Assembly (NCBI GenBank): GCA_965116475.1
Contig: OZ220691.1
Coordinates: 849,093 to 913,092 of the forward strand
Direction: 5' to 3'
DNA length: 64,000 nucleotides
Source of the DNA: Gemmatimonadota bacterium
Lineage (GTDB): Bacteria > Gemmatimonadota > Gemmatimonadetes > Palauibacterales > Palauibacteraceae
Shown in pieces: positions 37,694-50,406 of the stretch. The position numbers and the translations under genes were made by a program. How positions within the stretch are numbered: position 1 is the first letter of the stretch; each line of letters starts with the position of its first letter. The notes beneath the pieces are model-generated. The model was given only the letters and a program-made list of their open reading frames with translations. It was not told the origin of the DNA and did not search any database.

Positions 37694-38823
37694 CGCGCGC
37701 GCCGCAGGGCGTGGAGCTGCGCGGCGTCGAGAAGCGATACGGCGAGATCGCGGCCGTCCGGGCGCTGGATCTGGAGGTCCGGCCGGGAGAGCTGGCGGTG
37801 CTGGTGGGGCCCTCGGGGTGCGGGAAGAGCACGCTGCTGCGCCTTATCGCCGGGCTCGTCGAACCCACCTCGGGAGAGGTGTGGATCGGGGGACGGCGCG
37901 TGGACGATGTCGAGCCGGGCGCTCGCGACGTGGCCATGGTGTTCCAGAGCTACGCGCTCTACCCGCATATGACCGTGGCCGCGAATCTGGGCTTCGGCCT
38001 GCGTGTGCGGGGCACGCCGCGCGACGAGCTCGAGCGGCGGGTGGAGGAGACCGCCGCCACGCTCGGCCTCTCCGACCTGCTGTCGCGGAGGCCGGGCGAG
38101 CTGTCCGGCGGACAGCGTCAGCGGGTGGCCCTGGGACGCGCCATGGTGCGCGATCCCGGCGTATTCCTCTTCGACGAACCGCTCTCGAACCTGGACGCGG
38201 AGCTGCGGCTGCGGACGCGCGACGAGATCGCGGCTCTGCACCGGCGCCTCGGCACGACGATGATCTTCGTGACGCACGACCAGGTGGAAGCGCTGTCCCT
38301 CGGCCAGCGGGTCGCGGTGATGGACCGTGGCCGACTCCAGCAGGTGGGTACGCCGGATGAGGTCTACCGCCGACCCGCCAACCTGTTTGTGGCGGGCTTC
38401 GTGGGGTCGCCGCCCATCAACCGCATCCCTCTGTCGCGCGACGAACGAGGGTGCCTCGCGGGCGGTCCGTTCACCCTGCGCGCGCCGTCGTACCTCGACC
38501 GGGCGACGCTGGGCGTGCGGCCGGAGGACCTCGCCATAGTCCCCGCGGGGGCGCAGGATTCAAGCGAGGCGGGCGACGCCACCGAAGCGGGCGACTTCCG
38601 GGCCGTCGTGCTCCGCGTGGAGGCGCTGGGCAGCGAGCAGCGCCTGCACCTGGACGGCCCCGGCGACGCGGCCTGGGTGGCGCGCGCGGGCCCCGTCCTT
38701 CGGATCGCCCCCGGGGACCGGGTGAACGCGTCGGTCGCGTGGGAGCGCAGCCACCTGTTCGGTCCGGATGGCCGCCGCGAGGAGGCCGCGCCGCGACCGA
38801 TGGACCGGGCGGGCCCCCGATGA
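37690..38823 (+). CDS. carbohydrate ABC transporter ATP-binding protein (MalK/UgpC-like)
   Basis: Walker A GPSGCGKST, signature LSGGQRQR, Walker B LFDEPLS and the C-terminal TOBE-like domain. GTG start overlaps the GH stop (GTGA). Confidence 0.9.
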   Translation: MTRAPQGVELRGVEKRYGEIAAVRALDLEVRPGELAVLVGPSGCGKSTLLRLIAGLVEPTSGEVWIGGRRVDDVEPGARDVAMVFQSYALYPHMTVAANLGFGLRVRGTPRDELERRVEETAATLGLSDLLSRRPGELSGGQRQRVALGRAMVRDPGVFLFDEPLSNLDAELRLRTRDEIAALHRRLGTTMIFVTHDQVEALSLGQRVAVMDRGRLQQVGTPDEVYRRPANLFVAGFVGSPPINRIPLSRDERGCLAGGPFTLRAPSYLDRATLGVRPEDLAIVPAGAQDSSEAGDATEAGDFRAVVLRVEALGSEQRLHLDGPGDAAWVARAGPVLRIAPGDRVNASVAWERSHLFGPDGRREEAAPRPMDRAGPR

Positions 38824-40139
38824 CGCGCCCCCGGCCGGGCACCCGCAGATCCCTGCCGGCCACCACCGCTCGCGGCGTGGTCTGCGCCGCCCTCATCCTT
38901 GGGGCGGTCGGCTGCGCGCCCAGCGAATCGGACATCGTGCTGCGCGTGGCCCTTTGGGCCGGGGGGCACGAACTCGAGATCGAGCGGCAGGTGGCCGACC
39001 GCTACGAGGCGCAGCACCCCGGCGTCCGCATCGCGCTCGAATCAGCCCCCAACGGATACGAGGAGCGCCTGCTGACCTCGATCGCGGCGGGGCGTCCGCC
39101 GGACGTCTACCTCATGGACTCGCCGGACATCCCGACCTTCGTGGAGCGCGGGCTGGCGCTGGACCTCGCGCCGTACGAGGAGGCGCTCGGCTGGCGGCCG
39201 GACAGCGTGTTCAGGCAGGTGGCGGACGCGTTTCGCCGGGGCGCGTCGATGTTCGCGCTGCCGAAGGACTTTACGCCGATGGTCCTGTACGCGAACCGGA
39301 CCGTGCTCGCCGCCGCCGGCGTCGAAGACCTTCTGCCCGCGGCGAACTGGACCTGGACGGACTTCCGGCAGGCCGCGGAGGCGGTCGTCGCGGACGCCGA
39401 CGGCGACGGCCGCGACGACGTGTTCGGGTTCGACTTCCCGCGCAACCTGTACCAGTGGGTTCCATTCGTGTGGTCGGCGGGCGGCGACATCCTCGCGCCC
39501 GGCGGCGGCACGGCGGCAGGCTACCTGGACGGGCCGGAAGCGCTGCAGGCCTACCGCTTCCTCACGGCTCTGGCGGAGGACGGCCTCACGCCGGGCGCGC
39601 AGTTCGTGCAGCAGGGAGACCCCGCGCGGGAGGCGCGCTTCGCATCGGGCGGACAGGCGTTCCTGCTCTCGGGCCACTGGACGCTCCCCGTGTTCCGCGA
39701 CCTGGTGGAAACGGGCGACCTGGACCTGGCCATCGTCCCCATCCCGCACCATCCCTCGCGGACAGCAGCGACCAGCGTGCTGTACGCGTCCGGGTGGGCC
39801 GTGCCGCCGAACGCGACGCACCTGCGCCGGGCCATCGACCTGGCCGGCTTCCTCGCCTCGCCCGACGCGCAGCGCATCCGGGCGCGGTCGGGACTCGCCA
39901 TTCCGTCGCGGATGGATGTGGCGGCCGAGATCGCGGCGGCGGACGGCACGGGAGTGGAGCGTGCGTTCGTCGAGTTGGTCGAGGGCGCGCGGATGACGTG
40001 GGGCGCCCGCGTGCGCGACTTCTCCCGCATCGAGGCGCTGGCGGTGGAGATCATGGACCGCCGCCTGATTCGGGGAGAGCCCCTCGCAGCGAGCGCCGCG
40101 GACGTGGCCCGCCGCATCGACGCGGAGCTGGGGCGGTGA
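38820..40139 (+). CDS. ABC transporter substrate-binding lipoprotein (sugar family 1)
   Basis: MTRPRPG...LILGAVGCAPS lipobox. 439 aa. ATGA overlap with the ATPase stop. Confidence 0.85.
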   Translation: MTRPRPGTRRSLPATTARGVVCAALILGAVGCAPSESDIVLRVALWAGGHELEIERQVADRYEAQHPGVRIALESAPNGYEERLLTSIAAGRPPDVYLMDSPDIPTFVERGLALDLAPYEEALGWRPDSVFRQVADAFRRGASMFALPKDFTPMVLYANRTVLAAAGVEDLLPAANWTWTDFRQAAEAVVADADGDGRDDVFGFDFPRNLYQWVPFVWSAGGDILAPGGGTAAGYLDGPEALQAYRFLTALAEDGLTPGAQFVQQGDPAREARFASGGQAFLLSGHWTLPVFRDLVETGDLDLAIVPIPHHPSRTAATSVLYASGWAVPPNATHLRRAIDLAGFLASPDAQRIRARSGLAIPSRMDVAAEIAAADGTGVERAFVELVEGARMTWGARVRDFSRIEALAVEIMDRRLIRGEPLAASAADVARRIDAELGR

Positions 40140-41917
40140 GCCGCGCGCGGCAACCGGCCCTCGCCGCCCTTGCCGCCGTCGTCCTGGCCGCCGGGCTGGC
40201 GCTGGTGCTGGCCGTCGGCGCCGGCCGCGGGCACAGCGTCCGCGTGGATTCGGCCGAAGCCGAAGCGCGCATGGCGGCCGCGCTGTGGGAGGAGGCGGGC
40301 GGCGCCCGGGCGGTCACCGCACTGCTCGGTGAACGAGCGACGATCCTCGGCGCGGGCGCCGGAGGCGACGGGGCGGGGGCATACGCGTACGAGGCCGGCA
40401 CCCTCGAGCCCGCCGCCTGGATCGCGGTCGCGCCGCGCCGCGCGTACGGCCCGCTGGGGGCCCTCCCCGGCGCGGCCGGCGCCATCGCGCTGGCGGGCGC
40501 CGCGCTCATCGCCGGCTGGGCCGCGGGCCGGCGCCGCGGGCCGGCCCGTTCTCGCTACCCGGGGGGCATCGCGCTCCTCTCCATCGGCTGCGTCGCCCTG
40601 GCGGCGGCCGTCACCGGGCGGTGGGCGGACCGCGAACTCCGATCGCTGAGCGCCGCCACGGTGGCCCAGGGGGCACAAGCGGTCGAGCGGGCCCTGGCGA
40701 GCGGCGCGGAGCCGGCCCGCGCCGCCCGGGTCGCCCACCTCCCCTGGGCCGAGGACCACTCGCTGGAGGCCACCGGCGAGCAATGGACCATGCCGCCTGA
40801 AGTCGCGGCGGCCATCGCCGCCTCGCCCGACCGAGCCACGCAGCCCGCCGGCACGCCCGCGGGGACGCCGTACACGGTGGAAGCGGGCGGCGCCACGTGG
40901 CACGCGGCCCGCGCCGCCGACATCCACGTCGCGTTCCTCGGCTACGAGCGTACCGCCTCGCCCGCCCTCGCGCTGGCCGCCGCGGCCGCGCTCGCCACCC
41001 TGCTGGTCGCGCTGGCGCTCCACCTCGTGCAACTCGCGGCCCGTCCCCGCGTCCTGCGCCGAACCCTCGCGGCGTGGGGCCTCCTCGCGCCGGCCGCGGC
41101 CCTCATCCTCGCGTTCACGCTCGGGCCGCTCCTCTTCTCCCTCTGGATCTCGCTGCACGAGTGGCGCCTCATCGATCCCGCGCCGCTCTTCCTCGGATTC
41201 GACAACTACGCGGCGCTGCTCGGCGACGGCGAGTGGTGGTCGGCGATCGGGAACACGGCGCTGTTCACGCTGCACGTGCCCGCCGCGATGGCCGTCGCCC
41301 TCGCCCTCGCGCTCCTCACCCGGGGGTCGCGCCGCGCCGCGCGCTGGGCCCGGCTCGCCCTCTTCCTCCCCGGCATCACGAGCGTGGCGGCGATCGCCGT
41401 GGTGTGGAAGTGGCTGCTCAGCGACCGGTACGGGCTGCTGAACCGGGGCCTGGAGCGCATCGGGCTCGAGTCCGTCCCGTGGCTCAGCTCGCCCGACACC
41501 GCGCTGATCAGCCTGATGCTGATCGGCATCTGGATGGTGGTGGGCTACCAGATGGTCGTCTTCCAGGCGGGCCTCGCCGCGATCCCGCGCGACTGGTACG
41601 ACGCGGCCCGGGTCGACGGCGCGGGGCCGTGGCAGCGCCTCCGCCACGTCACCCTGCCCGGCCTGCGCCACACGCTGTTCTTCGTGCTCGTCACGTCCGT
41701 CATCGGGTCCTTCCAGGTGTTCGGACTCGTCTACGTGATGACCGAGGGCGGCCCGCTGGGCGCCACTGACGTCGCCGTATATCACATCTACCGCGAGGCG
41801 TGGGAGTTCCTGCAGTTCGGCAACGCGGCGGCGATGAGCTGGATGCTGTTCGCCGTCGTGTTCGCCGCCACGTGGCTGCACTTCCGCTTCCTCGATACGC
41901 GGCGCGCCCATGGCTGA
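40136..41917 (+). CDS. MalF-like carbohydrate ABC permease with about 300-aa N-terminal 4-TM extension
   Basis: C-terminal 290 aa is a canonical type I permease (EAA-like motif region AARVDGAGPWQRLRHVTLPGL). The in-frame upstream 300 aa are Ala-rich but hold 4 predicted TM helices and a roughly 130-aa loop, reminiscent of the MalF N-terminus. The GTG at 40136 overlaps the SBP stop. An alternative start is GTG near 41024. Confidence 0.65.
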   Translation: MSRARQPALAALAAVVLAAGLALVLAVGAGRGHSVRVDSAEAEARMAAALWEEAGGARAVTALLGERATILGAGAGGDGAGAYAYEAGTLEPAAWIAVAPRRAYGPLGALPGAAGAIALAGAALIAGWAAGRRRGPARSRYPGGIALLSIGCVALAAAVTGRWADRELRSLSAATVAQGAQAVERALASGAEPARAARVAHLPWAEDHSLEATGEQWTMPPEVAAAIAASPDRATQPAGTPAGTPYTVEAGGATWHAARAADIHVAFLGYERTASPALALAAAAALATLLVALALHLVQLAARPRVLRRTLAAWGLLAPAAALILAFTLGPLLFSLWISLHEWRLIDPAPLFLGFDNYAALLGDGEWWSAIGNTALFTLHVPAAMAVALALALLTRGSRRAARWARLALFLPGITSVAAIAVVWKWLLSDRYGLLNRGLERIGLESVPWLSSPDTALISLMLIGIWMVVGYQMVVFQAGLAAIPRDWYDAARVDGAGPWQRLRHVTLPGLRHTLFFVLVTSVIGSFQVFGLVYVMTEGGPLGATDVAVYHIYREAWEFLQFGNAAAMSWMLFAVVFAATWLHFRFLDTRRAHG

Positions 41918-42731
41918 CCGCGCGGTCGCGCCCCGGACGGCGCGGGGGCTCCTGCTCGCCGCGGCCTGCCTCGTCATGGCCGCGCCCTTCGCGTGGATGG
42001 CGCTCACGAGCCTCATGGGACAGCTCGAGGTGTTCGCCGGCGGGAGCCTCCTGCCGCGGCCGCCGCGGTGGTCCAACTATCCGGAGGCGCTGACGGTCCA
42101 GCCCTTCGGGCGCTACTTCCTGAATTCGGCCCTGTTCGCGACCGCGGTGGCGGCGGGCCAGGTCGCGACCTCGGCCACGGCCGGGTACGCCTTCGCCCGC
42201 CTCGACTTCCCGGGACGGGACGGGCTCTTCATGCTCTTCCTGTCGACGATGATGGTGCCCGCGGTCGTCGTCCTCATCCCCCGTTTCCTCGTCATCGAGG
42301 CCCTCGGCTGGATCGACACCTACCAGGGACTCATCTCCACGGAACTCGTCTCGGTGTGGGGCATATTTCTCATGCGCCAGTACTTCCGGACGGTGCCGCG
42401 CGAGCTGGAAGACGCCGCGCGCGTGGACGGCGCCGGGCGGGTGCGCATCTTCTGGAGCGTCGCCCTGCCGCTCGCGAAGCCCGCCGTGGCCACGCTCGCC
42501 CTGTTCGCGTTCGTCGACGCGTGGAAGAACCTGCTGTGGCCGCTCCTCGTGACCCGCTCCACGGAGATGCGGGTCGTCGAGGTGGGGATCGCCGCCTTCC
42601 ATTCGACCTACGAGATCAACTGGCCCTACCAGATGGCGGCCGGCGTCGCCGCCGTGCTGCCCATCGCCCTCCTCTTCCTCTTCACCCAGCGGTACTTCGT
42701 GCGCGGCATCCAACTGGAAGGCATCCGCTAG
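41910..42731 (+). CDS. carbohydrate ABC permease (MalG/UgpE-like)
   Basis: 273 aa, 6 TM, with EAA motif EDAARVDGAGRVRIFWSVALPLAKP. 8-nt overlap with the upstream permease. Confidence 0.9.
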   Translation: MADRAVAPRTARGLLLAAACLVMAAPFAWMALTSLMGQLEVFAGGSLLPRPPRWSNYPEALTVQPFGRYFLNSALFATAVAAGQVATSATAGYAFARLDFPGRDGLFMLFLSTMMVPAVVVLIPRFLVIEALGWIDTYQGLISTELVSVWGIFLMRQYFRTVPRELEDAARVDGAGRVRIFWSVALPLAKPAVATLALFAFVDAWKNLLWPLLVTRSTEMRVVEVGIAAFHSTYEINWPYQMAAGVAAVLPIALLFLFTQRYFVRGIQLEGIR

Positions 42732-42732
42732 C

Positions 42733-44583
42733 GTGATGCGGGTCGGGGCGCTCGAGGCGCGGCGCTGGGCCGGGCTCGTGTTTGCGGCCGGGCACGGCGA
42801 GGGGATCGGCCTCCGCCTCGTCTTCACCACACCTGACGGCGAGCGGCGGGAGTTGGAGGACTGGTACTGGATGGTCTCCCGTGTCGGTCCCCACGCGCCG
42901 GATGGATCCTACGCGCGCATGGAGTTCGACCTCGCCGCCGAGACGTCGGCGGACTCCCGCCCTGCGCGGAGCACGCTCATACTGGAGTGGTCGCGGCGCG
43001 AGAATGCCGTGGCATTGCGGGCGGTGGCGCGAGCGCCGGGCCGTGTGGCGTTGGTGGGGGACGATCCGTGGGGGTGGAAGACGACGTGGGAGAAAGCGTC
43101 CGAAGGCTGGCGGGCCGCGCTGGAAGGCATGGAGATCGCCGCCGCCTTCGCGCCTCGGGCGGGGGAACGCGCGGCCACGGTGGTCGCATGGGAGCCGCGA
43201 GGGGCGCCGTCCGGATCCACGGCCGCTCTGGACCGCGCCCAGCGCCTTCTCCCGGAGGTGGACCGCTGGATCGACGACGCGCGCGCCGACTGGGACCGTC
43301 GCCGTCCACGTGGGTCGGGGGCCGCGGAAGGACTCGTCGAAGCCGTTGCTGACCACGCGGTGTGGAATGTCCTCCTCCAGCCGGAAACCGGACGCCTGTA
43401 CGCGCCGGCGGGTCGTCGCTGGATCTTCCCGAAGCCCCGGCGCGCTGTACGGGAAGAGCCGCCCGGGCCCGACGACTGGACGGTGTTCGGGTGGGATTCC
43501 TTCTTCAACGCGCTCGCGCTCGCCACCGCGTCGGGGCGGTTGGCGTGGGAGGTGCTCCTCGCCGGGCTCGAGTCGCGCTATCCGAACGGGAACGTGCCCA
43601 ACTGGAGGAGCCGGCGCGGGGGCACGCCCGACCGCTCCCAGCCCCCGATCGGGTCGTTCGCCGCCTTGAAGCTGCACCTCACCTGCCCTGACGAGGACGC
43701 ACTGGCGGCGGCCTGGACAGGGCTTCGCGCGTGGAACGACTGGTGGGTGGCGGACAAGGGCGGACGCCCGCGCCGCGAGGGCCTCACCCCGGGACTGCTG
43801 GCGTGGGGCTCGGATGCGGCGCTGATTCCGCCATGCAAACAGCTTCCGGAGTGGGAGGTGGGCGCCGGCGGCCACCAGCGCGCGGCGTGGGAGTCGGGCC
43901 AGGACGACCTGCCGCTGTGGGAGGAGGCGGAATGGGATCCGGAGCGGGAAGTCCTCGCCATGTCCGCCGTCGATCTGTGCAGCTACCGCGCGCTGGACCT
44001 CGAATGCCTGGCGCGGATCGCCGCCATCCTGGGCGACTCGGCGGAGGCGGAGCGGCTGGAGGCCGAGCGCCGCCGGCTGGTCGCGACGATGAACCGGGTG
44101 CTGTGGTCCGAAGCCGCCGGGCTCTACCTGGACGAGCTGCCTGCCGGTCGCTCTCCTCGTGTGGCGGCGTCGAACTTCCTTCCCCTGATCGCCGGCGTGC
44201 CGTCAACGCGGCGGGCGCGGCGCATGATCGGCGTGCTGCGCGACCCCGCGCGCTTCCGGGGACAGTGGATGCTGCCCACCATCTCGCGCGACGACCCGGC
44301 GTTCGAGGACCAGCAGTACTGGCGCGGCTCCATCTGGCCGCCCATGAATTACCTCGTGCTGCAGGGACTGCGGCGGTACAGGTTCGACGAACTCGCAAAC
44401 GAACTGGCATGGAAGGGGGCGCTCATGTTCCTCGCCGACCTCCGGCGCACGGGGTTCTGCCGCGAGAACTTCGACGCGCGCAGCGGTCGGGGGCGGGGGC
44501 ACCGCTTCCAGAGCTGGGGACCGCTGTTCGCGCTCGGCGCGATCGAGGAGACCGTCAACGGCTGTCCATGGCGCGGACGGTAG
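42733..44583 (+). CDS. six-hairpin glycoside hydrolase, clan GH-G (GH63/GH37-like)
   Basis: QQYWRGSIWPPMNYLVLQGL matches the Q-W-x-x-P-x-x-W-P-P signature of trehalase and mannosylglycerate-hydrolase-type enzymes. 616 aa, no signal peptide. Confidence 0.75.
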   Translation: MMRVGALEARRWAGLVFAAGHGEGIGLRLVFTTPDGERRELEDWYWMVSRVGPHAPDGSYARMEFDLAAETSADSRPARSTLILEWSRRENAVALRAVARAPGRVALVGDDPWGWKTTWEKASEGWRAALEGMEIAAAFAPRAGERAATVVAWEPRGAPSGSTAALDRAQRLLPEVDRWIDDARADWDRRRPRGSGAAEGLVEAVADHAVWNVLLQPETGRLYAPAGRRWIFPKPRRAVREEPPGPDDWTVFGWDSFFNALALATASGRLAWEVLLAGLESRYPNGNVPNWRSRRGGTPDRSQPPIGSFAALKLHLTCPDEDALAAAWTGLRAWNDWWVADKGGRPRREGLTPGLLAWGSDAALIPPCKQLPEWEVGAGGHQRAAWESGQDDLPLWEEAEWDPEREVLAMSAVDLCSYRALDLECLARIAAILGDSAEAERLEAERRRLVATMNRVLWSEAAGLYLDELPAGRSPRVAASNFLPLIAGVPSTRRARRMIGVLRDPARFRGQWMLPTISRDDPAFEDQQYWRGSIWPPMNYLVLQGLRRYRFDELANELAWKGALMFLADLRRTGFCRENFDARSGRGRGHRFQSWGPLFALGAIEETVNGCPWRGR

Positions 44584-44593
44584 GGTCGTCCCG

Positions 44594-46807
44594 ATGAGGC
44601 GTGTGGAGTCGGCCGACCGGTCGGAGCGGGCGACGCTGGTCATCCTCGCCGCTGGGCGATCCACGCGGTTCGGTCGCGCCAAGCAGCTCGAACCGATGGG
44701 GCCGGGCGGCGCGTCGCTGCTCGAGTACGCGGTGTACGACGCCCTGCGCGCGGGCTTCGAGCGTTTCGTGCTCGTGGTGCGCGAGAGCCAGCGCGACGAG
44801 TTCGAGGCGCGTCTGGCTCCACTGCGCGCGGCGGGGGTCTCTCTCTCCTTCGCTTGCCAGCGCCTGGTCCACCCCGACCTCGTCCCCCTCGCCCCACCCG
44901 GGCGCGTCCGGCCCTGGGGCACGGGATTCGCCGTGTTGGCCGCGGCGACGGCCCTGACCCATCGCGGCGCGTTTGCCGTCTGTAACGCGGACGACTTCTA
45001 CGGGCGGGTCGCGTACGAGCGCCTGGCGCACGCGCTCGCGACGCCTCCCTCGGGTATCCGCGCCTTCGCGGTGACCTCCCCCTTGACCCACACCCTGTCG
45101 GCCTTTGGAGGCGTGTCGCGCGGCCTTTGCGAAGCGGGGCCCGACGGCACACTCCTCCGGATGACGGAAGGCCTGGATCTGCGCCTCGACGGCGACGCGC
45201 CCGGGGACGCTGCGCGGACGGGCGAAGGAGCCGAGCCCTCGGCCGGCCGCCCCTGCGTCGTCGGGCACACTCCCGCCGGCGCAGCGGTCCGGGTGGACGC
45301 GGACAGCCAGGTGTGCATGGGTCTGTGGGGATTCTTCCCCGACATCCTGCCCCTGCTGGAGGAACGCTTCCGGGATTTCGTCGCTGCCTCCCCGGGGACC
45401 GAGGACGAGTTCTACCTGTCGGAGACCATCGGCGATCTTGCGGCCGCCGAACGGACGCGCTGCGGCCTGGTGCCCGCGGGCCCGGGATGGATGGGCGTCA
45501 CTTTCCCCGGAGACCGCGAGGGCGTCGCCGTGTCGCTTCGGCAACTGACCGAGGCCGGCGCCTATCCCGTCGATCTCTGGACGCCGCACGTTCACGCGAA
45601 GCCGGTCCGCGCGGCTCAGGCGTCGCTCTTCAGTCCGCCGCAGGCGCCGCCGAGTGGGGTGGCGACCGCTCCAGGGCGCATCAACCTGATCGGCGAGCAC
45701 ATCGACTACAACGGCCTGCCGGTGCTGCCGATGGCTCTCGACCGACACGTCCGGCTGGATTTCGAGGCGCTGCGGTACTCGACGGTCGAACTCGAAGGCG
45801 ATTCCGCCCACGGTTCGTTCGCCTTCCGGCTGGACCGCACCACAGAATCCGCACCCCGGGGCCACTGGTCGAACTACGTGAGGGCCGCGGCCAGGGGATT
45901 GCTCGACCACGGCGTGGAACTGAAGCGAGGCATCAGGGGAACGGTCACGGGCACCGTGCCGGTGGCGGAGGGGCTGTCGTCCTCTTCCGCCCTTGTAGTG
46001 GCGTCCGCGCTGGCCCTGTTACACGCGAACGAAGCGGACGTAGAGGCCCTGGAACTGGCGGCGCTTCTCGCCCGGGCCGAGCGTTATGTCGGCGTGCAGG
46101 GCGGCGGGATGGACCAGGCCGCGTCGCTCTGCGGAAAGGAAGGGCACGCGCTGCGGATCGACTTCGGACCGCTGCGCGTGACACCCGTGCCGGTGCCGGA
46201 GGGGTGGCGCTGGGTCGTCGCCTCGTCGTTGACGCGCGCCGAGAAGGCGGGAGCGGTCCGCGAGTTGTACAACGAGCGGCGGGCCCAGTGCGCGGAGGCC
46301 CTCGAACGGGTGGGTCAGGCTTCCTGGCTGGAGGTCGTGGAAGCCGGCCGGGCCGAGTTCGAATCCATCCTGGCCGGGGCACAGAGGTCGCTGCCGCTCA
46401 CGTTGTGGAGGCGCTTTCGCCACGTGGCCACCGAGGGTCGCCGGGTGATCGAGGCCGAGCGCGCGCTTCGCGACGGCAACATGGCGGCCTTCGGCCGGCT
46501 GATGAACGCATCGCACGCCAGCCTGCGCGATGACTTCGGCGTGAGCACGCAGGCGCTGGACGAGATCGTGGGCGTGGCCCTCGAGGCGGGGGCGGCCGGC
46601 GCGCGGCTCACGGGCGCGGGATTCGGCGGCTGCGTGGTCGCGCTCTGCCCCGCGAACGAGGCGAAGGGCGTGATCGAAGCCCTGCTCGATCGCTTCTACG
46701 CCCCCCGAGGAGGGGTCGACCGCCGTGCCCTCTTCGTCGCCGACGCCGCCGACGGCGCCACCGTAACGAGCGGTGGGCCGTTGGCCGTCTCGACAGGCGA
46801 TAGCTAG
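44594..46807 (+). CDS. bifunctional sugar-1-phosphate nucleotidyltransferase / GHMP sugar-1-kinase (galactokinase-like), Fkp-like domain order
   Basis: N-terminal LVILAAGRSTRFG...KQL nucleotidyltransferase motif. C-terminal PGRINLIGEHIDYNGLPVLPMAL (GalK signature), GLSSSSALVVASALAL (GHMP motif 2) and GAGFGGCVVAL (motif 3). 737 aa. Confidence 0.8.
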   Translation: MRRVESADRSERATLVILAAGRSTRFGRAKQLEPMGPGGASLLEYAVYDALRAGFERFVLVVRESQRDEFEARLAPLRAAGVSLSFACQRLVHPDLVPLAPPGRVRPWGTGFAVLAAATALTHRGAFAVCNADDFYGRVAYERLAHALATPPSGIRAFAVTSPLTHTLSAFGGVSRGLCEAGPDGTLLRMTEGLDLRLDGDAPGDAARTGEGAEPSAGRPCVVGHTPAGAAVRVDADSQVCMGLWGFFPDILPLLEERFRDFVAASPGTEDEFYLSETIGDLAAAERTRCGLVPAGPGWMGVTFPGDREGVAVSLRQLTEAGAYPVDLWTPHVHAKPVRAAQASLFSPPQAPPSGVATAPGRINLIGEHIDYNGLPVLPMALDRHVRLDFEALRYSTVELEGDSAHGSFAFRLDRTTESAPRGHWSNYVRAAARGLLDHGVELKRGIRGTVTGTVPVAEGLSSSSALVVASALALLHANEADVEALELAALLARAERYVGVQGGGMDQAASLCGKEGHALRIDFGPLRVTPVPVPEGWRWVVASSLTRAEKAGAVRELYNERRAQCAEALERVGQASWLEVVEAGRAEFESILAGAQRSLPLTLWRRFRHVATEGRRVIEAERALRDGNMAAFGRLMNASHASLRDDFGVSTQALDEIVGVALEAGAAGARLTGAGFGGCVVALCPANEAKGVIEALLDRFYAPRGGVDRRALFVADAADGATVTSGGPLAVSTGDS

Positions 46808-46841: not shown

Positions 46842-47051
46842 ATGCAAACCTACACTGCCGTCGTGGAGCGCTGCCCCGACACGGGCCTGTATGTGGGCTA
46901 TGTGCCCGGTTTCCAAGGTGCGCACAGCCAAGGCGAGACCCTTGAGGAACTCAACCGGAATCTCAAGGAAGTGATCGCCATGCTTCTCGAGGAGGGGACG
47001 CCCGCACTCGTTGGCGAGTACGTCGGGACCCAGACCGTCGTCCTGGCCTAG
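46842..47051 (+). CDS. hicB: HicB-family antitoxin (UPF0150)
   Basis: MQTYTAVVERCPDTGLYVGYVPGFQGAHSQGETLEELNRNLKEVIAMLLEEG is the HicB/UPF0150 consensus pattern; 69 aa. Confidence 0.75.
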   Translation: MQTYTAVVERCPDTGLYVGYVPGFQGAHSQGETLEELNRNLKEVIAMLLEEGTPALVGEYVGTQTVVLA

Positions 47052-47057
47052 GCTCGG

Positions 47058-47285
47058 GTGCCGCCGGTCCCCGTCCTCAAGCCGCGCGAGGTCGTTTCAA
47101 TCCTCCGTCGGCTCGGTTTCAAGGAAGTGCGACAGCGGGGGTCCCATAAGCGGTTCCGCCATCCTGATGGTCGCGCAACGACCGTACCCGTCCACGGCGG
47201 CCGGGACGTGTCACCCATACTGCTCCGAAGGATCGCCCGCGAAATCGGCCTGACGATTCACGAGTTCGTTGAGCAGCGGCGATAG
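47058..47285 (+). CDS. hicA: HicA-family mRNA-interferase toxin
   Basis: [59 protein letters not shown] is the YcfA/HicA dsRBD-like fold signature (GSH..F.HP). GTG start 6 nt after the hicB stop. Confidence 0.8.
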
Positions 47286-47292
47286 GGAAACC

Positions 47293-50200
47293 ATGAAGCA
47301 CACCGGTAGCGGCGTAACCACGATGCAGGGCTCTGGGTCAAGCTGGAAGTCGGGAAACCAGCAACACCGTCTTCCATACGCGGCCATCCTGTGCGCCGCC
47401 TTGGCGGTAGTCTCGTGCGATGGCCCGGGGCCCCGCGCTCGGATCTCGGAGGAGGTGCGGGTGCTGGACACCTACCCGTTTTCGGATCCGAATCCCGTGC
47501 CGGTACTGGCCACCGACCGGCGGCTGTACCCCTACCATACGTTCGAGGGATACGCGGCGACGTCGGAGCCCCGGGAGTGGAAGGTCGTGACGATGGAGAA
47601 CGACCTCATCGAGGTCTTCGTCCTCCCCGAGGTGGGCGGCAAGGTGTGGGGGGCCGTGGTGAAGGCGACCGGCCACGAGTTCATCTATCGGAACGAAGTG
47701 ATGAAGTTCCGGGACATCGCGCTGCGCGGTCCGTGGACCTCGGGCGGTCTCGAGTTCAACTTCGGCGTCATCGGGCACACGCCGGCCACCGCCACGCCCG
47801 TCGACTACCTCCTGCGCGAGAACGCGGACGGCAGCGTGAGCACGATCGTCGGCGCCACCGACCTCCCATCGCGGACGCCGTGGCGGGTCGAAATCCGGCT
47901 TCCGCCGGACCGGGCCGCCTTCGAGACGCGCGTCCTGTGGTACAACCCGACCCCGCTGGAGCAGCCTTACTACAACTGGATGACGGCCGCGGCCTTCGCG
48001 CAGGACGACCTTGAACTGTTCGTGCCCGGCAACGCCTACCTGGAGCACTCCGGCCGGGCGCGCCCCTGGCCCGAGGACGAGGAGGGGCGCTTCCTCCCCC
48101 TCTACCGCAACAACGCGTTCGGGGGACACAAGTCCTACCACGTCGTCGGGGCCCTGAACGACTTCTTCGGCGGCTACTACCACGACGAGGACTACGGCTG
48201 GGGGCACTGGGCTCCGCACGAGGAGATGCCCGGGCGCAAGATGTGGCTGTGGGCGCTCTCCCGCGCCGGCGGCATCTGGGAGGATCTGCTCACCGACACG
48301 GACGGCCAGTACGTCGAGTTCCAGGCGGGGCGGCTGCATGCGCAGTACGCGCCCGGGGCGGACAGGAATCCGATCTCGCAGGCGGGGTTCGATCCGCTCT
48401 CGGCGAGCCGCTGGACGGAGTGGTGGTTCCCGCTGGAGGGAACGGGCGGCCTCACGGACGCCTCCCCGCACGGCGCCATGCACGTCGAGCGGGTGAGCGA
48501 CGGCCTGCGGGTCGTGGTCCAGGCGTTCGGATCCGGGGTCGACACCGTGGCGGTATGGTCGGACGGTGAACAGATCGCCGCCCGGGCGGTGGCCTTCGAG
48601 GCCCTGGATCCGCTGACGGTCGAGTTCGACGTCGCGCCCGGGCGTCCGTGGCGTGTCTCGCTCCCGGGGCTCCGCCTGGAAGCCTGCTCGAGACCGGGCG
48701 CAACCGGTCTCGCCGGGGTGTGCGGATTCGGCGGAGAGCCCTCGGTGTCCCGACCGTTCGGGACGAACGCCGAGGCATGGGAGGCACTACCGGAAACGGA
48801 CCGCCTGGTGTTCGAGGCGAGGGAGTTGGTGCGGGGCCGGCGCCATGCCGACGCGCGGACGCGGTACGACCGCGCGCTCGCCGCCGAGCCGTGGAACCGG
48901 GAGGCGCTGCTCGGTCTCGGCGCGCTGGCGTTGAGGTCGGCTCGCTACGAGGAGGGCCTCGCCCACGCCCGGCGGGCGCTCCAGCTCGACACCTACGATC
49001 CGGAAGCCAACTTCCTCGCCGGCAACCTGTATCTCGCCCTGGGGCGCCGGGCGGATGCGCTCGACTCGTTCGGCTGGGCCGCCCGGTCAGTGGAGTTCCG
49101 GGCCGCGGCGCGCACTCGGCTGGCGGAATTGGCGCTGGAGGCGGGGGACATGGCCGAAACACGCCGCCACGCCGCTCTGGCACTCGACCACGACCGCGTG
49201 AGTATTCCGGCCCGCGAGGCGCTGGCGATCGCGGCGCGGCTCGAGGGAGACGAAGCGGGTGCGGCGCGCGTGCAGGCGGAACTGCTGGAACTGGATCCGC
49301 TGAACCATTTCGTGCTGGCCGAGCGCTATCTCGCGGCGCGGGCCGCAGGATCCGTCAGCGCGGAGGCGGCGGACGGAGCCGAAGCAGCGCGCCTCACCGC
49401 CTCGATGCGGAGCGAGTATCCGGGACAGACGCTGCTGGAACTCGCCGTGGGGTACGCGAACCGCGGGCTGGACGCCGATGCCGCGCGCTTGCTGGAGTTG
49501 GCGGACGAGGTGGGCGGCGGCCCCGTCGCCGCGGCGTGGCTCGCCTTTCTGACGCAGGATCCGGACCTGCTGCGCGCGGGGGCCGATCCCGCCTTCGCCT
49601 TCCCCTACCGCCCCGAAACGCTGCCGGTCCTGCGCTGGGCGGCCGCCGAAGACGCGCACTGGGGCTGGCGTTACCTGCTGGGCCTGAACCTGTGGGCGCT
49701 CGATCGCGACGCCGAGGCGGCCGAGGTGCTGGGGACCCTGGGCGACGAACCCGACTACGGCCCCGCCTATGCGGCGCGCGCACACCTGACTGAAGCCATG
49801 GGCGGCGACCCGAGTCCCGATTTCCTGCGCGCCGTCGCGGTGGATCCCGGGAGCCGCCTCCTCCACATCTCCCTCATCCGGCATCTGCAGGAAACGGGAC
49901 GGTGGGCGCAGGCGCGCGAGGCGTCCGGCCGGGGAACGGGACTCTTCCCGGACGACTTCAACCTCGCCCTCCTCCACGTGCGAGGGCTCATCCAGGCGGG
50001 CGAGTACCGCGAAGCCAACGGGATCCTTGCCGGCACCCGCGTACTACCCTCGGAGAACTCCGGCGAGGCCCACCGGCTGTACGAGTTCGCGCACGTCGGC
50101 GCCGCGCTGGACGAACTGGAGGCCGGGAACCGCCCGGCCGCCCGCCGTCACCTGGAGGCCGCGCTGCTGTGGCCGGAATCGCTCGGCCAGGGCCGTCCCT

Positions 50201-50406
50201 TCGACCCTGACGACCGGCTGGTGCGGTTCCTGTTCGACGCGGCGGCGGAAAACCCCGATGGCGTACCCCGGGCCTTCGAGACCGTCACCATCGCCTCGCT
50301 GCGCGCCCGCATCGATTCGCTCGGCGCCGCCCCGTCCCCGATCGCGACGATCGAGCAAGACCTCCTGCGCCGGGCCCTCTCCGCCGCCGCCCGCCTGGAA
50401 CGCTAG
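47293..50406 (+). CDS. large lipoprotein with N-terminal beta-rich domain (possibly DUF5107-like) + C-terminal TPR repeats
   Basis: Start at MKHTGSG, 8 nt after the hicA stop. Lipobox AVVSCDG. The C-terminal 500 aa contains multiple TPR-like helical pairs (ALAAEPWNREALLGLGALALR... and similar). 1037 aa. Confidence 0.7.
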   Translation: MKHTGSGVTTMQGSGSSWKSGNQQHRLPYAAILCAALAVVSCDGPGPRARISEEVRVLDTYPFSDPNPVPVLATDRRLYPYHTFEGYAATSEPREWKVVTMENDLIEVFVLPEVGGKVWGAVVKATGHEFIYRNEVMKFRDIALRGPWTSGGLEFNFGVIGHTPATATPVDYLLRENADGSVSTIVGATDLPSRTPWRVEIRLPPDRAAFETRVLWYNPTPLEQPYYNWMTAAAFAQDDLELFVPGNAYLEHSGRARPWPEDEEGRFLPLYRNNAFGGHKSYHVVGALNDFFGGYYHDEDYGWGHWAPHEEMPGRKMWLWALSRAGGIWEDLLTDTDGQYVEFQAGRLHAQYAPGADRNPISQAGFDPLSASRWTEWWFPLEGTGGLTDASPHGAMHVERVSDGLRVVVQAFGSGVDTVAVWSDGEQIAARAVAFEALDPLTVEFDVAPGRPWRVSLPGLRLEACSRPGATGLAGVCGFGGEPSVSRPFGTNAEAWEALPETDRLVFEARELVRGRRHADARTRYDRALAAEPWNREALLGLGALALRSARYEEGLAHARRALQLDTYDPEANFLAGNLYLALGRRADALDSFGWAARSVEFRAAARTRLAELALEAGDMAETRRHAALALDHDRVSIPAREALAIAARLEGDEAGAARVQAELLELDPLNHFVLAERYLAARAAGSVSAEAADGAEAARLTASMRSEYPGQTLLELAVGYANRGLDADAARLLELADEVGGGPVAAAWLAFLTQDPDLLRAGADPAFAFPYRPETLPVLRWAAAEDAHWGWRYLLGLNLWALDRDAEAAEVLGTLGDEPDYGPAYAARAHLTEAMGGDPSPDFLRAVAVDPGSRLLHISLIRHLQETGRWAQAREASGRGTGLFPDDFNLALLHVRGLIQAGEYREANGILAGTRVLPSENSGEAHRLYEFAHVGAALDELEAGNRPAARRHLEAALLWPESLGQGRPFDPDDRLVRFLFDAAAENPDGVPRAFETVTIASLRARIDSLGAAPSPIATIEQDLLRRALSAAARLER

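Follow-up and report, generated by a model that had tools for sequence, protein, structure and literature searches.

A natural fusion of a sugar-phosphate nucleotidyltransferase with a galactokinase in a sponge-associated Gemmatimonadota bacterium

A gene of a sponge-associated Gemmatimonadota bacterium of the family Palauibacteraceae (GenBank assembly GCA_965116475.1) encodes a natural fusion of a galactokinase and a sugar-phosphate nucleotidyltransferase. The stretch of DNA analyzed here, hereafter the window, comprises 64,000 nucleotides (nt) of contig OZ220691.1 (positions 849,093 to 913,092 of the forward strand), and the gene occupies positions 44594-46807 of its plus strand. It is a single uninterrupted open reading frame (ORF) through both halves, with an ATG start and 737 amino acids (aa) plus the stop codon, just as described in an earlier note on this DNA, made from the letters alone, and the motifs quoted there are present in the translation. 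The GC content of the window is ~71% and spurious long ORFs are common in it, so the codon-position composition was checked. Third-position GC of the fused ORF is 0.80-0.92 in each 300-nt slice, with a low second-position GC as expected, and because the third-position value is high along the whole ORF we conclude that both halves are read in a single coding frame.

Pfam matches on the 737-aa protein are NTP_transf_3/NTP_transferase (aa 16-176), the galactokinase signature PF10509 (aa 353-386, E 2.6e-16), GHMP_N (aa 427-515), and GHMP_C (aa 623-702). The N-terminal sugar-1-phosphate nucleotidyltransferase domain (44594..45583, plus strand, aa 1-330), which matches PDB 3PNN, is followed by a linker of ~28 aa (45584..45664, plus strand, about aa 331-357, TPHVHAKPVRAAQASLFSPPQAPPSGV) and by the C-terminal galactokinase domain (45665..46804, plus strand, aa 358-737). 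The linker was placed there because the similarity to free-standing halves stops at ~329 and resumes at ~357; nucleotidyltransferases encoded alone align to aa 14-329 and kinases encoded alone to aa 357-724. The AlphaFold model, which draws on 81 sequences, shows two confidently folded domains (mean predicted local distance difference test score, pLDDT, 88.7), and the linker is disordered in it (pLDDT <50 for aa 332-348). Pfam and the model both bear out the order proposed in the earlier note, a pyrophosphorylase followed by a GHMP anomeric sugar kinase, as in Fkp and FKGP.

The kinase half is assigned by its sequence to the GalK subfamily and is predicted to phosphorylate D-galactose at C1 in an ATP-dependent manner. 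It scores 256.5 bits with the NCBIfam galactokinase model TIGR00131, the curated equivalog cut-off of which is 226.65. The GRxNLIGEHxDY-type galactokinase motif reads APGRINLIGEHIDYNG at aa 359-374, GHMP motif II (GLSSSSA) and motif III (GAGFGGC) are found at aa 460-466 and aa 674-680, respectively, and PF00288 and PF08544 are matched. Relatives of this half by sequence and fold are human N-acetylgalactosamine (GalNAc) kinase (GALK2), L. lactis GalK, human GALK1, Pyrococcus GalK, and yeast Gal1/Gal3, and Foldseek gave E 1e-30 to 1e-33 for the model of the fusion protein against GalK structures. The NCBIfam models of mevalonate, homoserine, and shikimate kinases score far under their cut-offs for the fusion protein, and no fucokinase is among the 27 PDB sequence matches of the kinase half at E <= 1e-3. 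The kinase thus clusters firmly with galactokinases by TIGR00131, PDB, and Foldseek, and not with the mevalonate/homoserine kinases, the outcome that the earlier note had named as fatal to its proposal.

Alignment to 1PIE and GALK1 showed that the galactose-contacting and catalytic residues are all kept (R362, E368, H369, D371, D507, and Y559). The Arg, Glu, His, and Asp belong to GRxNLIGEHxDY, D507 is the catalytic Asp of GGGMDQ, and Y559 is the sugar-binding Tyr. We take the contact residues to be Arg36, Glu42, Asp45, Asp183, and Tyr233 in L. lactis GalK and Arg37, Glu43, His44, Asp46, Asp186, and Tyr236 in human GALK1. To speak of an "unknown hexose", as was done previously, therefore seems too cautious, since every galactose-contacting residue is kept. 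A GalNAc kinase identity, which the top PDB match suggested, is disfavored because position 559 is a Tyr, as in galactokinases, and aligns with a Phe of human GalNAc kinase.

By sequence, the N-terminal domain belongs to the 3PNN family, a family without assigned function which is related to GalU-type pyrophosphorylases. PDB 3PNN matches aa 12-328 over nearly the full length of both proteins at E 1e-51, and at E 1e-91 with a family profile of 27 members. The remaining PDB matches of this profile are eleven sequences of GalU or UDP-glucose pyrophosphorylase (UGPase) at 6e-8 to 4e-3, and besides these GalU-type UTP-glucose-1-phosphate uridylyltransferases the profile finds two weak MobA-related matches. 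PF00483 scores 23.1 bits on the domain (cut-off 21.2). The key positions are AAGRSTRFG (aa 19-27), K30, Q89, G109-T110, and D133-D134. All of these, the first as the loop G-x-x-T-R, are invariant or nearly so among the 27 family members, fused and free-standing, and the last four align with the nucleotide loop, the base-contacting Gln, the GLGHAV loop, and the LADD metal site of GalU. The region of the G-x-G-T-R-x(n)-K loop reads AAGRSTRFGRAK, where Ser replaces the second Gly; R25, G27, and K30 show conservation across the family. The best 50 Foldseek matches of the full-length model are kinases only and give no independent view of this domain. UTP is most likely its nucleotide because of the relationship to GalU and because a UDP-glucose 4-epimerase homologue adjoins the gene in relatives.

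When one genome was scanned for each species, 80 loci were obtained, nearly all of them titled Gemmatimonadota or Longimicrobiales and three carrying a "Gammaproteobacteria" bin label; many derive from sponge or coral metagenomes. Complete chromosomes of Palauibacter and Longimicrobiales are among the records obtained, e.g., NZ_OZ253465.1, NZ_OZ244907.1, OZ242312.1, and OZ241869.1. The earlier note had proposed to look for a two-gene state in related genomes, and the halves are indeed separate genes of one operon (nucleotidyltransferase, SSF symporter, and kinase, in this order) in 48 of the 80, which represent about as many related Longimicrobiales genomes. Eight more loci have the nucleotidyltransferase and the symporter without a kinase match; four of these end at a contig edge, and no kinase lies within 8 kb downstream in the other four. 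The closest solved relative of the symporter is the Na+/galactose transporter vSGLT of Vibrio (E 4e-31), followed by human SGLT1/2. A divergently transcribed epimerase gene is located just upstream in 13 unfused loci, and the best PDB matches of its product are the short-form UDP-glucose 4-epimerases 4ZRM (2e-80), 7YS8, and 2P5U. Judging from these similarities, the unfused set appears to have the content of a gal operon, i.e., an importer, a kinase, a 4-epimerase, and a nucleotidyltransferase in the place of GalT. Because the unfused genes flank a vSGLT-like importer and adjoin a GalE-type epimerase, we read this layout as one for galactose utilization in which the nucleotidyltransferase would replace GalT, and the previous suggestion that the pathway serves salvage rather than catabolism is unproven. 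Functional coupling of the two halves is suggested by the Rosetta-stone argument, since they are separate co-operonic genes in relatives.

The fused gene is present in 20 of the 80 loci, all from independent assemblies (metagenome-assembled genomes, MAGs) and several of them closed chromosomes, and the terminal stop codon is the only one in each of the 20 fused ORFs. In the protein database, the identical sequence is accompanied by ~36 clusters (formed at 90% identity; 70-90% identical) in which the four domains have the same arrangement. Every one is of Gemmatimonadota origin, and those with a name are "Candidatus Palauibacter"; NCBI annotates the fused proteins simply as "galactokinase". The 3PNN-type fusion is rare: among 1.84 billion cluster representatives searched exhaustively with HMMER, only two have it. 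One stands for the Palauibacter cluster, the other is a form of ~800 aa (P0037/P0038). A third, unrelated fusion (P0291, 658 aa) has a canonical PF00483 nucleotidyltransferase (aa 4-220) joined directly to a galactokinase. This last protein is encoded in two separate read-archive assemblies (L089 4377-6353 and L090 3002-4978) with no sugar genes nearby. No published account of a naturally occurring GalK fusion was found, and the paper describing Palauibacterales makes no mention of galactose, galactokinase, or GH63.

Simple distance trees of each domain were made by neighbor joining with 40 bootstraps. The Palauibacter fused clade was monophyletic in 40 of the 40 bootstraps, while the second fused lineage joined it in none of the 40 with either domain and was closer to unfused sequences. 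The linker is ~28 aa long in Palauibacter versus ~85-90 aa of a different sequence in the second lineage. A single origin of all fused genes was rejected, as neither domain tree ever unites the two lineages in one clade, and this non-monophyly indicates that the 3PNN-type domain was fused to galactokinase twice independently. One fused locus (L003) and several unfused loci have common downstream genes, an M20 peptidase gene on the opposite strand and then a short-chain dehydrogenase (SDR) gene, so that the fused gene sits in the ancestral neighborhood. The simplest history is that the symporter gene between the two enzymes was lost and the halves were fused; on two separate occasions, an ancestral operon in which a Na+/sugar symporter gene lay between those of the nucleotidyltransferase and the galactokinase would have lost this middle gene.

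The free-standing nucleotidyltransferases of two loci (L001 5062-6225 and L005 5236-6225) end in Pro/Arg/Asp-rich tandem repeats of variable length (LWDARPT LWDARPT ...), and such a floppy tail may have eased the in-frame fusion to the kinase. The MAG JAPPGH01 (Ca. Palauibacter rhopaloidicola) has the fused locus L006 as well as the unfused locus L067 (nucleotidyltransferase, symporter, kinase, and epimerase), on contigs that differ in coverage (431x versus 585x); these are either coexisting paralogues or the result of one mis-binned contig.

The fusion gene is the last of a series of plus-strand genes which abut or overlap from 35351 to 46807 and, for that reason, form one operon. The first gene, GH63a (35351..37693, start codon uncertain), encodes an MGH1-like hydrolase of 780 aa (PF22422, E 4e-44) with a weak match to YgjK. 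An ATP-binding cassette (ABC) importer follows, consisting of an ATPase of the MalK/MsiK type with a TOBE domain (37681..38823; Pfam ABC_tran and TOBE_2), which likely starts at a GTG at 37681 or 37690, a solute-binding lipoprotein (38820..40139; Pfam SBP_bac_1 and SBP_bac_8), the N-terminus of which (...LILGAVGC) carries a lipobox, and two permeases (40136-41917 and 41910-42731; Pfam BPD_transp_1 in both). The first permease (~590 aa) has a long Ala/Gly-rich N-terminal extension before BPD_transp_1 and is unusually large for the CUT1 type. GH63b (42733..44583) encodes a second GH63/MGH1-like hydrolase of 616 aa (Pfam MGH1-like_GH, Trehalase, and GH63), and the ATG of the fusion gene is located 10 nt past its stop codon. 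The nearest PDB entries of GH63b are Thermus TTHA0978, which we take to be a mannosyl/glucosyl-glycerate hydrolase, and E. coli YgjK, which is reported to accommodate 2-O-alpha-glucosyl-galactose and is used here as a lead only.

The two glycosidases and the sugar importer that had been noted upstream are thus confirmed by Pfam and PDB matches, the former as GH63/MGH1-like enzymes. In 18 of the 20 fused loci the gene immediately upstream of the fusion is GH63b, and the whole importer set (GH63a and the ABC genes) is found in 14. No signal peptide is evident in GH63a or GH63b, the N-termini of which were read by eye and the starts of which are uncertain. Because the binding protein has a lipobox and the hydrolases are without an evident signal peptide, import would come first, followed by hydrolysis and activation, which reverses the order (hydrolysis, then import) of the earlier note.

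Downstream of the fusion gene, a HicB-like antitoxin (UPF0150/HicB_lk; 46842-47051, plus strand) and a HicA toxin (PF07927, E 3e-21; 47058-47285, plus strand) are encoded before the next large gene, which encodes a lipoprotein with DUF5107 and TPR (47293..50406, plus strand). Locus L003 has a UPF0150 gene at the same spot as HicB. The DUF5107 + TPR gene is present within the ±10-kb flanks in 19 of the 20 fused loci, the independent lineage included, while its membership in the pathway is uncertain. A role as a cytoplasmic mutarotase (GalM) fits the fold but is disfavored by the lipoprotein signal and also because the Bacteroidota homologues adjoin SusC/SusD or other glycan-degrading genes, not gal genes; an extracytoplasmic carbohydrate-handling protein is more likely. 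Nothing relevant was found in the literature on 3PNN and on DUF5107. Just upstream of the sugar operon, after the pntAB transhydrogenase genes, the segment 27645-34558 (plus strand) encodes a Sortilin/BNR-repeat protein of 1103 aa as well as a leucine-rich-repeat protein of 867 aa, the latter containing an M66-like metallopeptidase region; such eukaryote-like repeat proteins are typical of sponge symbionts. A 250-aa ORF (34593-35345, minus strand) with a strong coding signal (third-position GC 0.86) and no Pfam match is divergent from the first gene of the operon, and could be an unrecognized regulator of it.

Taken together, we favor a bifunctional enzyme which would convert galactose via galactose-1-phosphate (Gal-1-P) to UDP-galactose (UDP-Gal) in a GalT-independent, Isselbacher-like route fed by the importer and the GH63 enzymes, and we consider this reading rather probable. 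The ABC importer would take up a glycoside, and the two apparently cytoplasmic GH63 hydrolases would split it and free galactose. The C-terminal GHMP domain would then form alpha-D-galactose-1-phosphate from D-galactose and ATP, and the N-terminal domain would form UDP-galactose and pyrophosphate from Gal-1-P and a nucleoside triphosphate, most likely UTP. A 4-epimerase and the reversible reaction of UDP-glucose pyrophosphorylase could carry the carbon to glucose-1-phosphate, so that the route would provide UDP-Gal and also pass carbon on to glycolysis in cells presumed to lack GalT. The tethered activities may also hold free Gal-1-P low. A wider proposal, which we put forward only tentatively, is that the 3PNN-type enzyme is a UDP-Gal pyrophosphorylase replacing GalT in a bacterial Isselbacher-type pathway across Longimicrobiales and Palauibacterales, that selection against a build-up of Gal-1-P led twice independently to its fusion with galactokinase, and that the sponge and coral symbionts recruited the fused enzyme behind the importer and the GH63 hydrolases to use an alpha-glucosyl-galactose glycoside of the host, e.g., the Glc-Gal units of collagen.

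Several observations weigh against the galactose route. The AlphaFold model leaves undefined how the two domains are oriented to each other (predicted template modeling score, pTM, 0.64), and for this reason gives no support for physical channeling. The similarity of the N-terminal domain to GalU spans the first ~125 residues only, and the nucleotide and the sugar-phosphate accepted by this domain are predicted ones. The top PDB sequence match of the kinase is human GalNAc kinase (196 bits, E 7e-57), with classical GalK matches scoring lower (160-163 bits, E 7e-47), and some bacterial GalKs are promiscuous, as Solitalea GalK accepts xylose (PMC11267548). Neither the 64-kb window nor the 10-kb flanks of any fused locus contain a GalE-type gene. 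To our knowledge, the sugar set free by characterized GH63 enzymes is glucose or mannose rather than galactose, so that galactose would need to be the aglycone of the imported glycoside or the hydrolases would need to be of a new specificity.

The alternatives can be weighed on the same evidence. The same two-step chemistry could serve purely anabolic salvage, as the earlier note had proposed, in which the nucleotide sugar is made for the cell's own glycans, much as Fkp works for fucose, and the sugar is not a carbon source. The known natural kinase-pyrophosphorylase fusions Fkp, FKGP, and GKUP are salvage enzymes (PMC11982464; PMC3938481), and no epimerase gene lies beside the fused gene in the Palauibacter loci, but a dedicated ABC importer with two hydrolases in the operon is the usual layout for nutrient acquisition, and the unfused orthologues adjoin a vSGLT-like importer as well as an epimerase of the GalE type that would take the product towards UDP-glucose. 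We think a purely anabolic role rather unlikely, while salvage and catabolic roles do not exclude each other. It is slightly less likely still that the substrate is another sugar (GalNAc, L-arabinose/D-xylose, galacturonate, or another galacto-configured sugar) giving a different nucleotide sugar. Such a substrate would agree with the ranking of human GalNAc kinase above GalK among the PDB matches (7e-57 versus 7e-47), with the known bacterial GalK/uridyltransferase pair making UDP-xylose (PMC11267548), and with the 3PNN family being without an assigned substrate. Against it, Tyr559 is as in true galactokinases (Phe in GalNAc kinase) and the remaining galactose contacts are kept, a galactokinase model is passed at the equivalog level, and the partner transporter and epimerase of the relatives are nearest to a Na+/galactose symporter and UDP-glucose 4-epimerase, respectively.

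It is improbable, in our opinion, that the N-terminal domain does not catalyze the consecutive step, but acts on another nucleotide or an unrelated substrate, or is a regulatory or oligomerization module on an ordinary galactokinase. The plain NCBI name, the replaced second glycine of G-x-G-T-R (AAGRSTR), and the remote similarity to characterized enzymes would fit this view. However, K30, Q89, G109-T110, and D133-D134 are nearly or fully invariant whether the domain is fused or free-standing, the free-standing form is co-operonic with a kinase in 48 loci, and the pair was fused twice independently, with a third lineage having fused a canonical PF00483 nucleotidyltransferase to GalK; the conserved residues, the co-operonic loci, and the repeated fusions together argue for selection on a coupled reaction. 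We have practically no doubt that the fused gene is real. Nothing was found in favor of a frameshift or an assembly error joining two adjacent genes, and such an artefact is excluded by the intact fused ORF in 20 independent assemblies, closed chromosomes included; ~36 protein clusters of the same four-domain architecture and the codon-position GC, which is continuous across the junction, also stand against it.

The galactose route, if it holds, would be the first testable functional lead for the 3PNN family, which has a solved structure and no known activity, and it is a pointer to GalT-free galactose use in a poorly studied bacterial phylum. The fusion protein is also a candidate for a natural one-protein catalyst of UDP-galactose synthesis from galactose, artificial counterparts of which have lately been engineered (PMC11267548), and the annotation "galactokinase" overlooks half of the enzyme. 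Three independent kinase-nucleotidyltransferase fusions, two of the 3PNN type and one canonical, would suggest recurrent fusion of consecutive enzymes around a toxic intermediate. Natural kinase-pyrophosphorylase fusions are already known for fucose and glucuronate, and the galactokinase version is a further kind, of moderate practical and annotational value.

Among the known systems, Fkp is similar in that one polypeptide has an N-terminal pyrophosphorylase and a C-terminal GHMP anomeric sugar kinase and takes a free sugar through two steps to the corresponding nucleotide sugar (PMC11982464). Fkp is a protein of 949 aa, with an N-terminal domain (aa 1-496) which includes a beta-helix subdomain, a folded three-helix linker, a kinase of the fucokinase subfamily, and GTP as its nucleotide (PMC11982464). 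The fusion protein, in contrast, has a 330-aa N-terminal domain of the 3PNN/GalU type, a disordered linker of ~28 aa, and a kinase of the GalK subfamily. It has no match to the Pfam Fucokinase/GDP-fucose-pyrophosphorylase families at E <= 0.01, and the secondary structure predicted for its model, a mixture of strands and helices, shows no evident beta-helix segment. The description "Fkp-like" in the earlier note therefore applies to the domain order and not to descent, given the lack of a Fucokinase match in Pfam and of a fucokinase match in PDB as well as the disordered linker. Homology to Fkp as a whole was rejected on the Pfam and PDB matches, since both domains are in other subfamilies; the fusion is independent of Fkp and would work like it without membership in its family.

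Zebrafish DrGKUP, a glucuronokinase/UDP-glucuronate pyrophosphorylase, is similarly composed of an N-terminal GT-A-type, bacterial-like nucleotidyltransferase (~260 aa) and a C-terminal GHMP sugar-1-kinase (PMC3938481). GKUP is UTP-dependent, and free-standing homologues of its nucleotidyltransferase exist in bacteria and archaea (PMC3938481). It differs, as compared by description only, in being eukaryotic, of the glucuronokinase subfamily, and specific for glucuronate, and membership of the fusion protein in the GKUP type is unlikely given its galactokinase equivalog score. The Isselbacher route of plants and Leishmania, which consists of a galactokinase, a UDP-sugar pyrophosphorylase (USP), and a UDP-glucose 4-epimerase, has the same GalT-free chemistry that we propose and shares the logic of Gal-1-P removal (PMC6329318; PMC4722067); plants run galactokinase and USPase in the stead of GalT (PMC6329318). 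Its activities, however, reside on separate proteins, and its pyrophosphorylase belongs to the large eukaryotic USP family, not to the 3PNN/GalU type.

PDB 3PNN itself, a "conserved domain protein" of 303 aa, is the nearest solved relative of the N-terminal domain, but is free-standing. In Solitalea canadensis, a GalK-family kinase and a glucose-1-phosphate uridylyltransferase produce a UDP-sugar from a free sugar, and engineered ScGPUT-ScGalK chimeras work in vitro, the pyrophosphorylase-first order generally giving higher product (PMC11267548). The natural precedents given in that 2024 paper are the fucose and glucuronate enzymes only (PMC11267548). Those chimeras are man-made and were used for xylose, whereas the fusion described here is natural and has a nucleotidyltransferase of another family, placed in the same pyrophosphorylase-first order.

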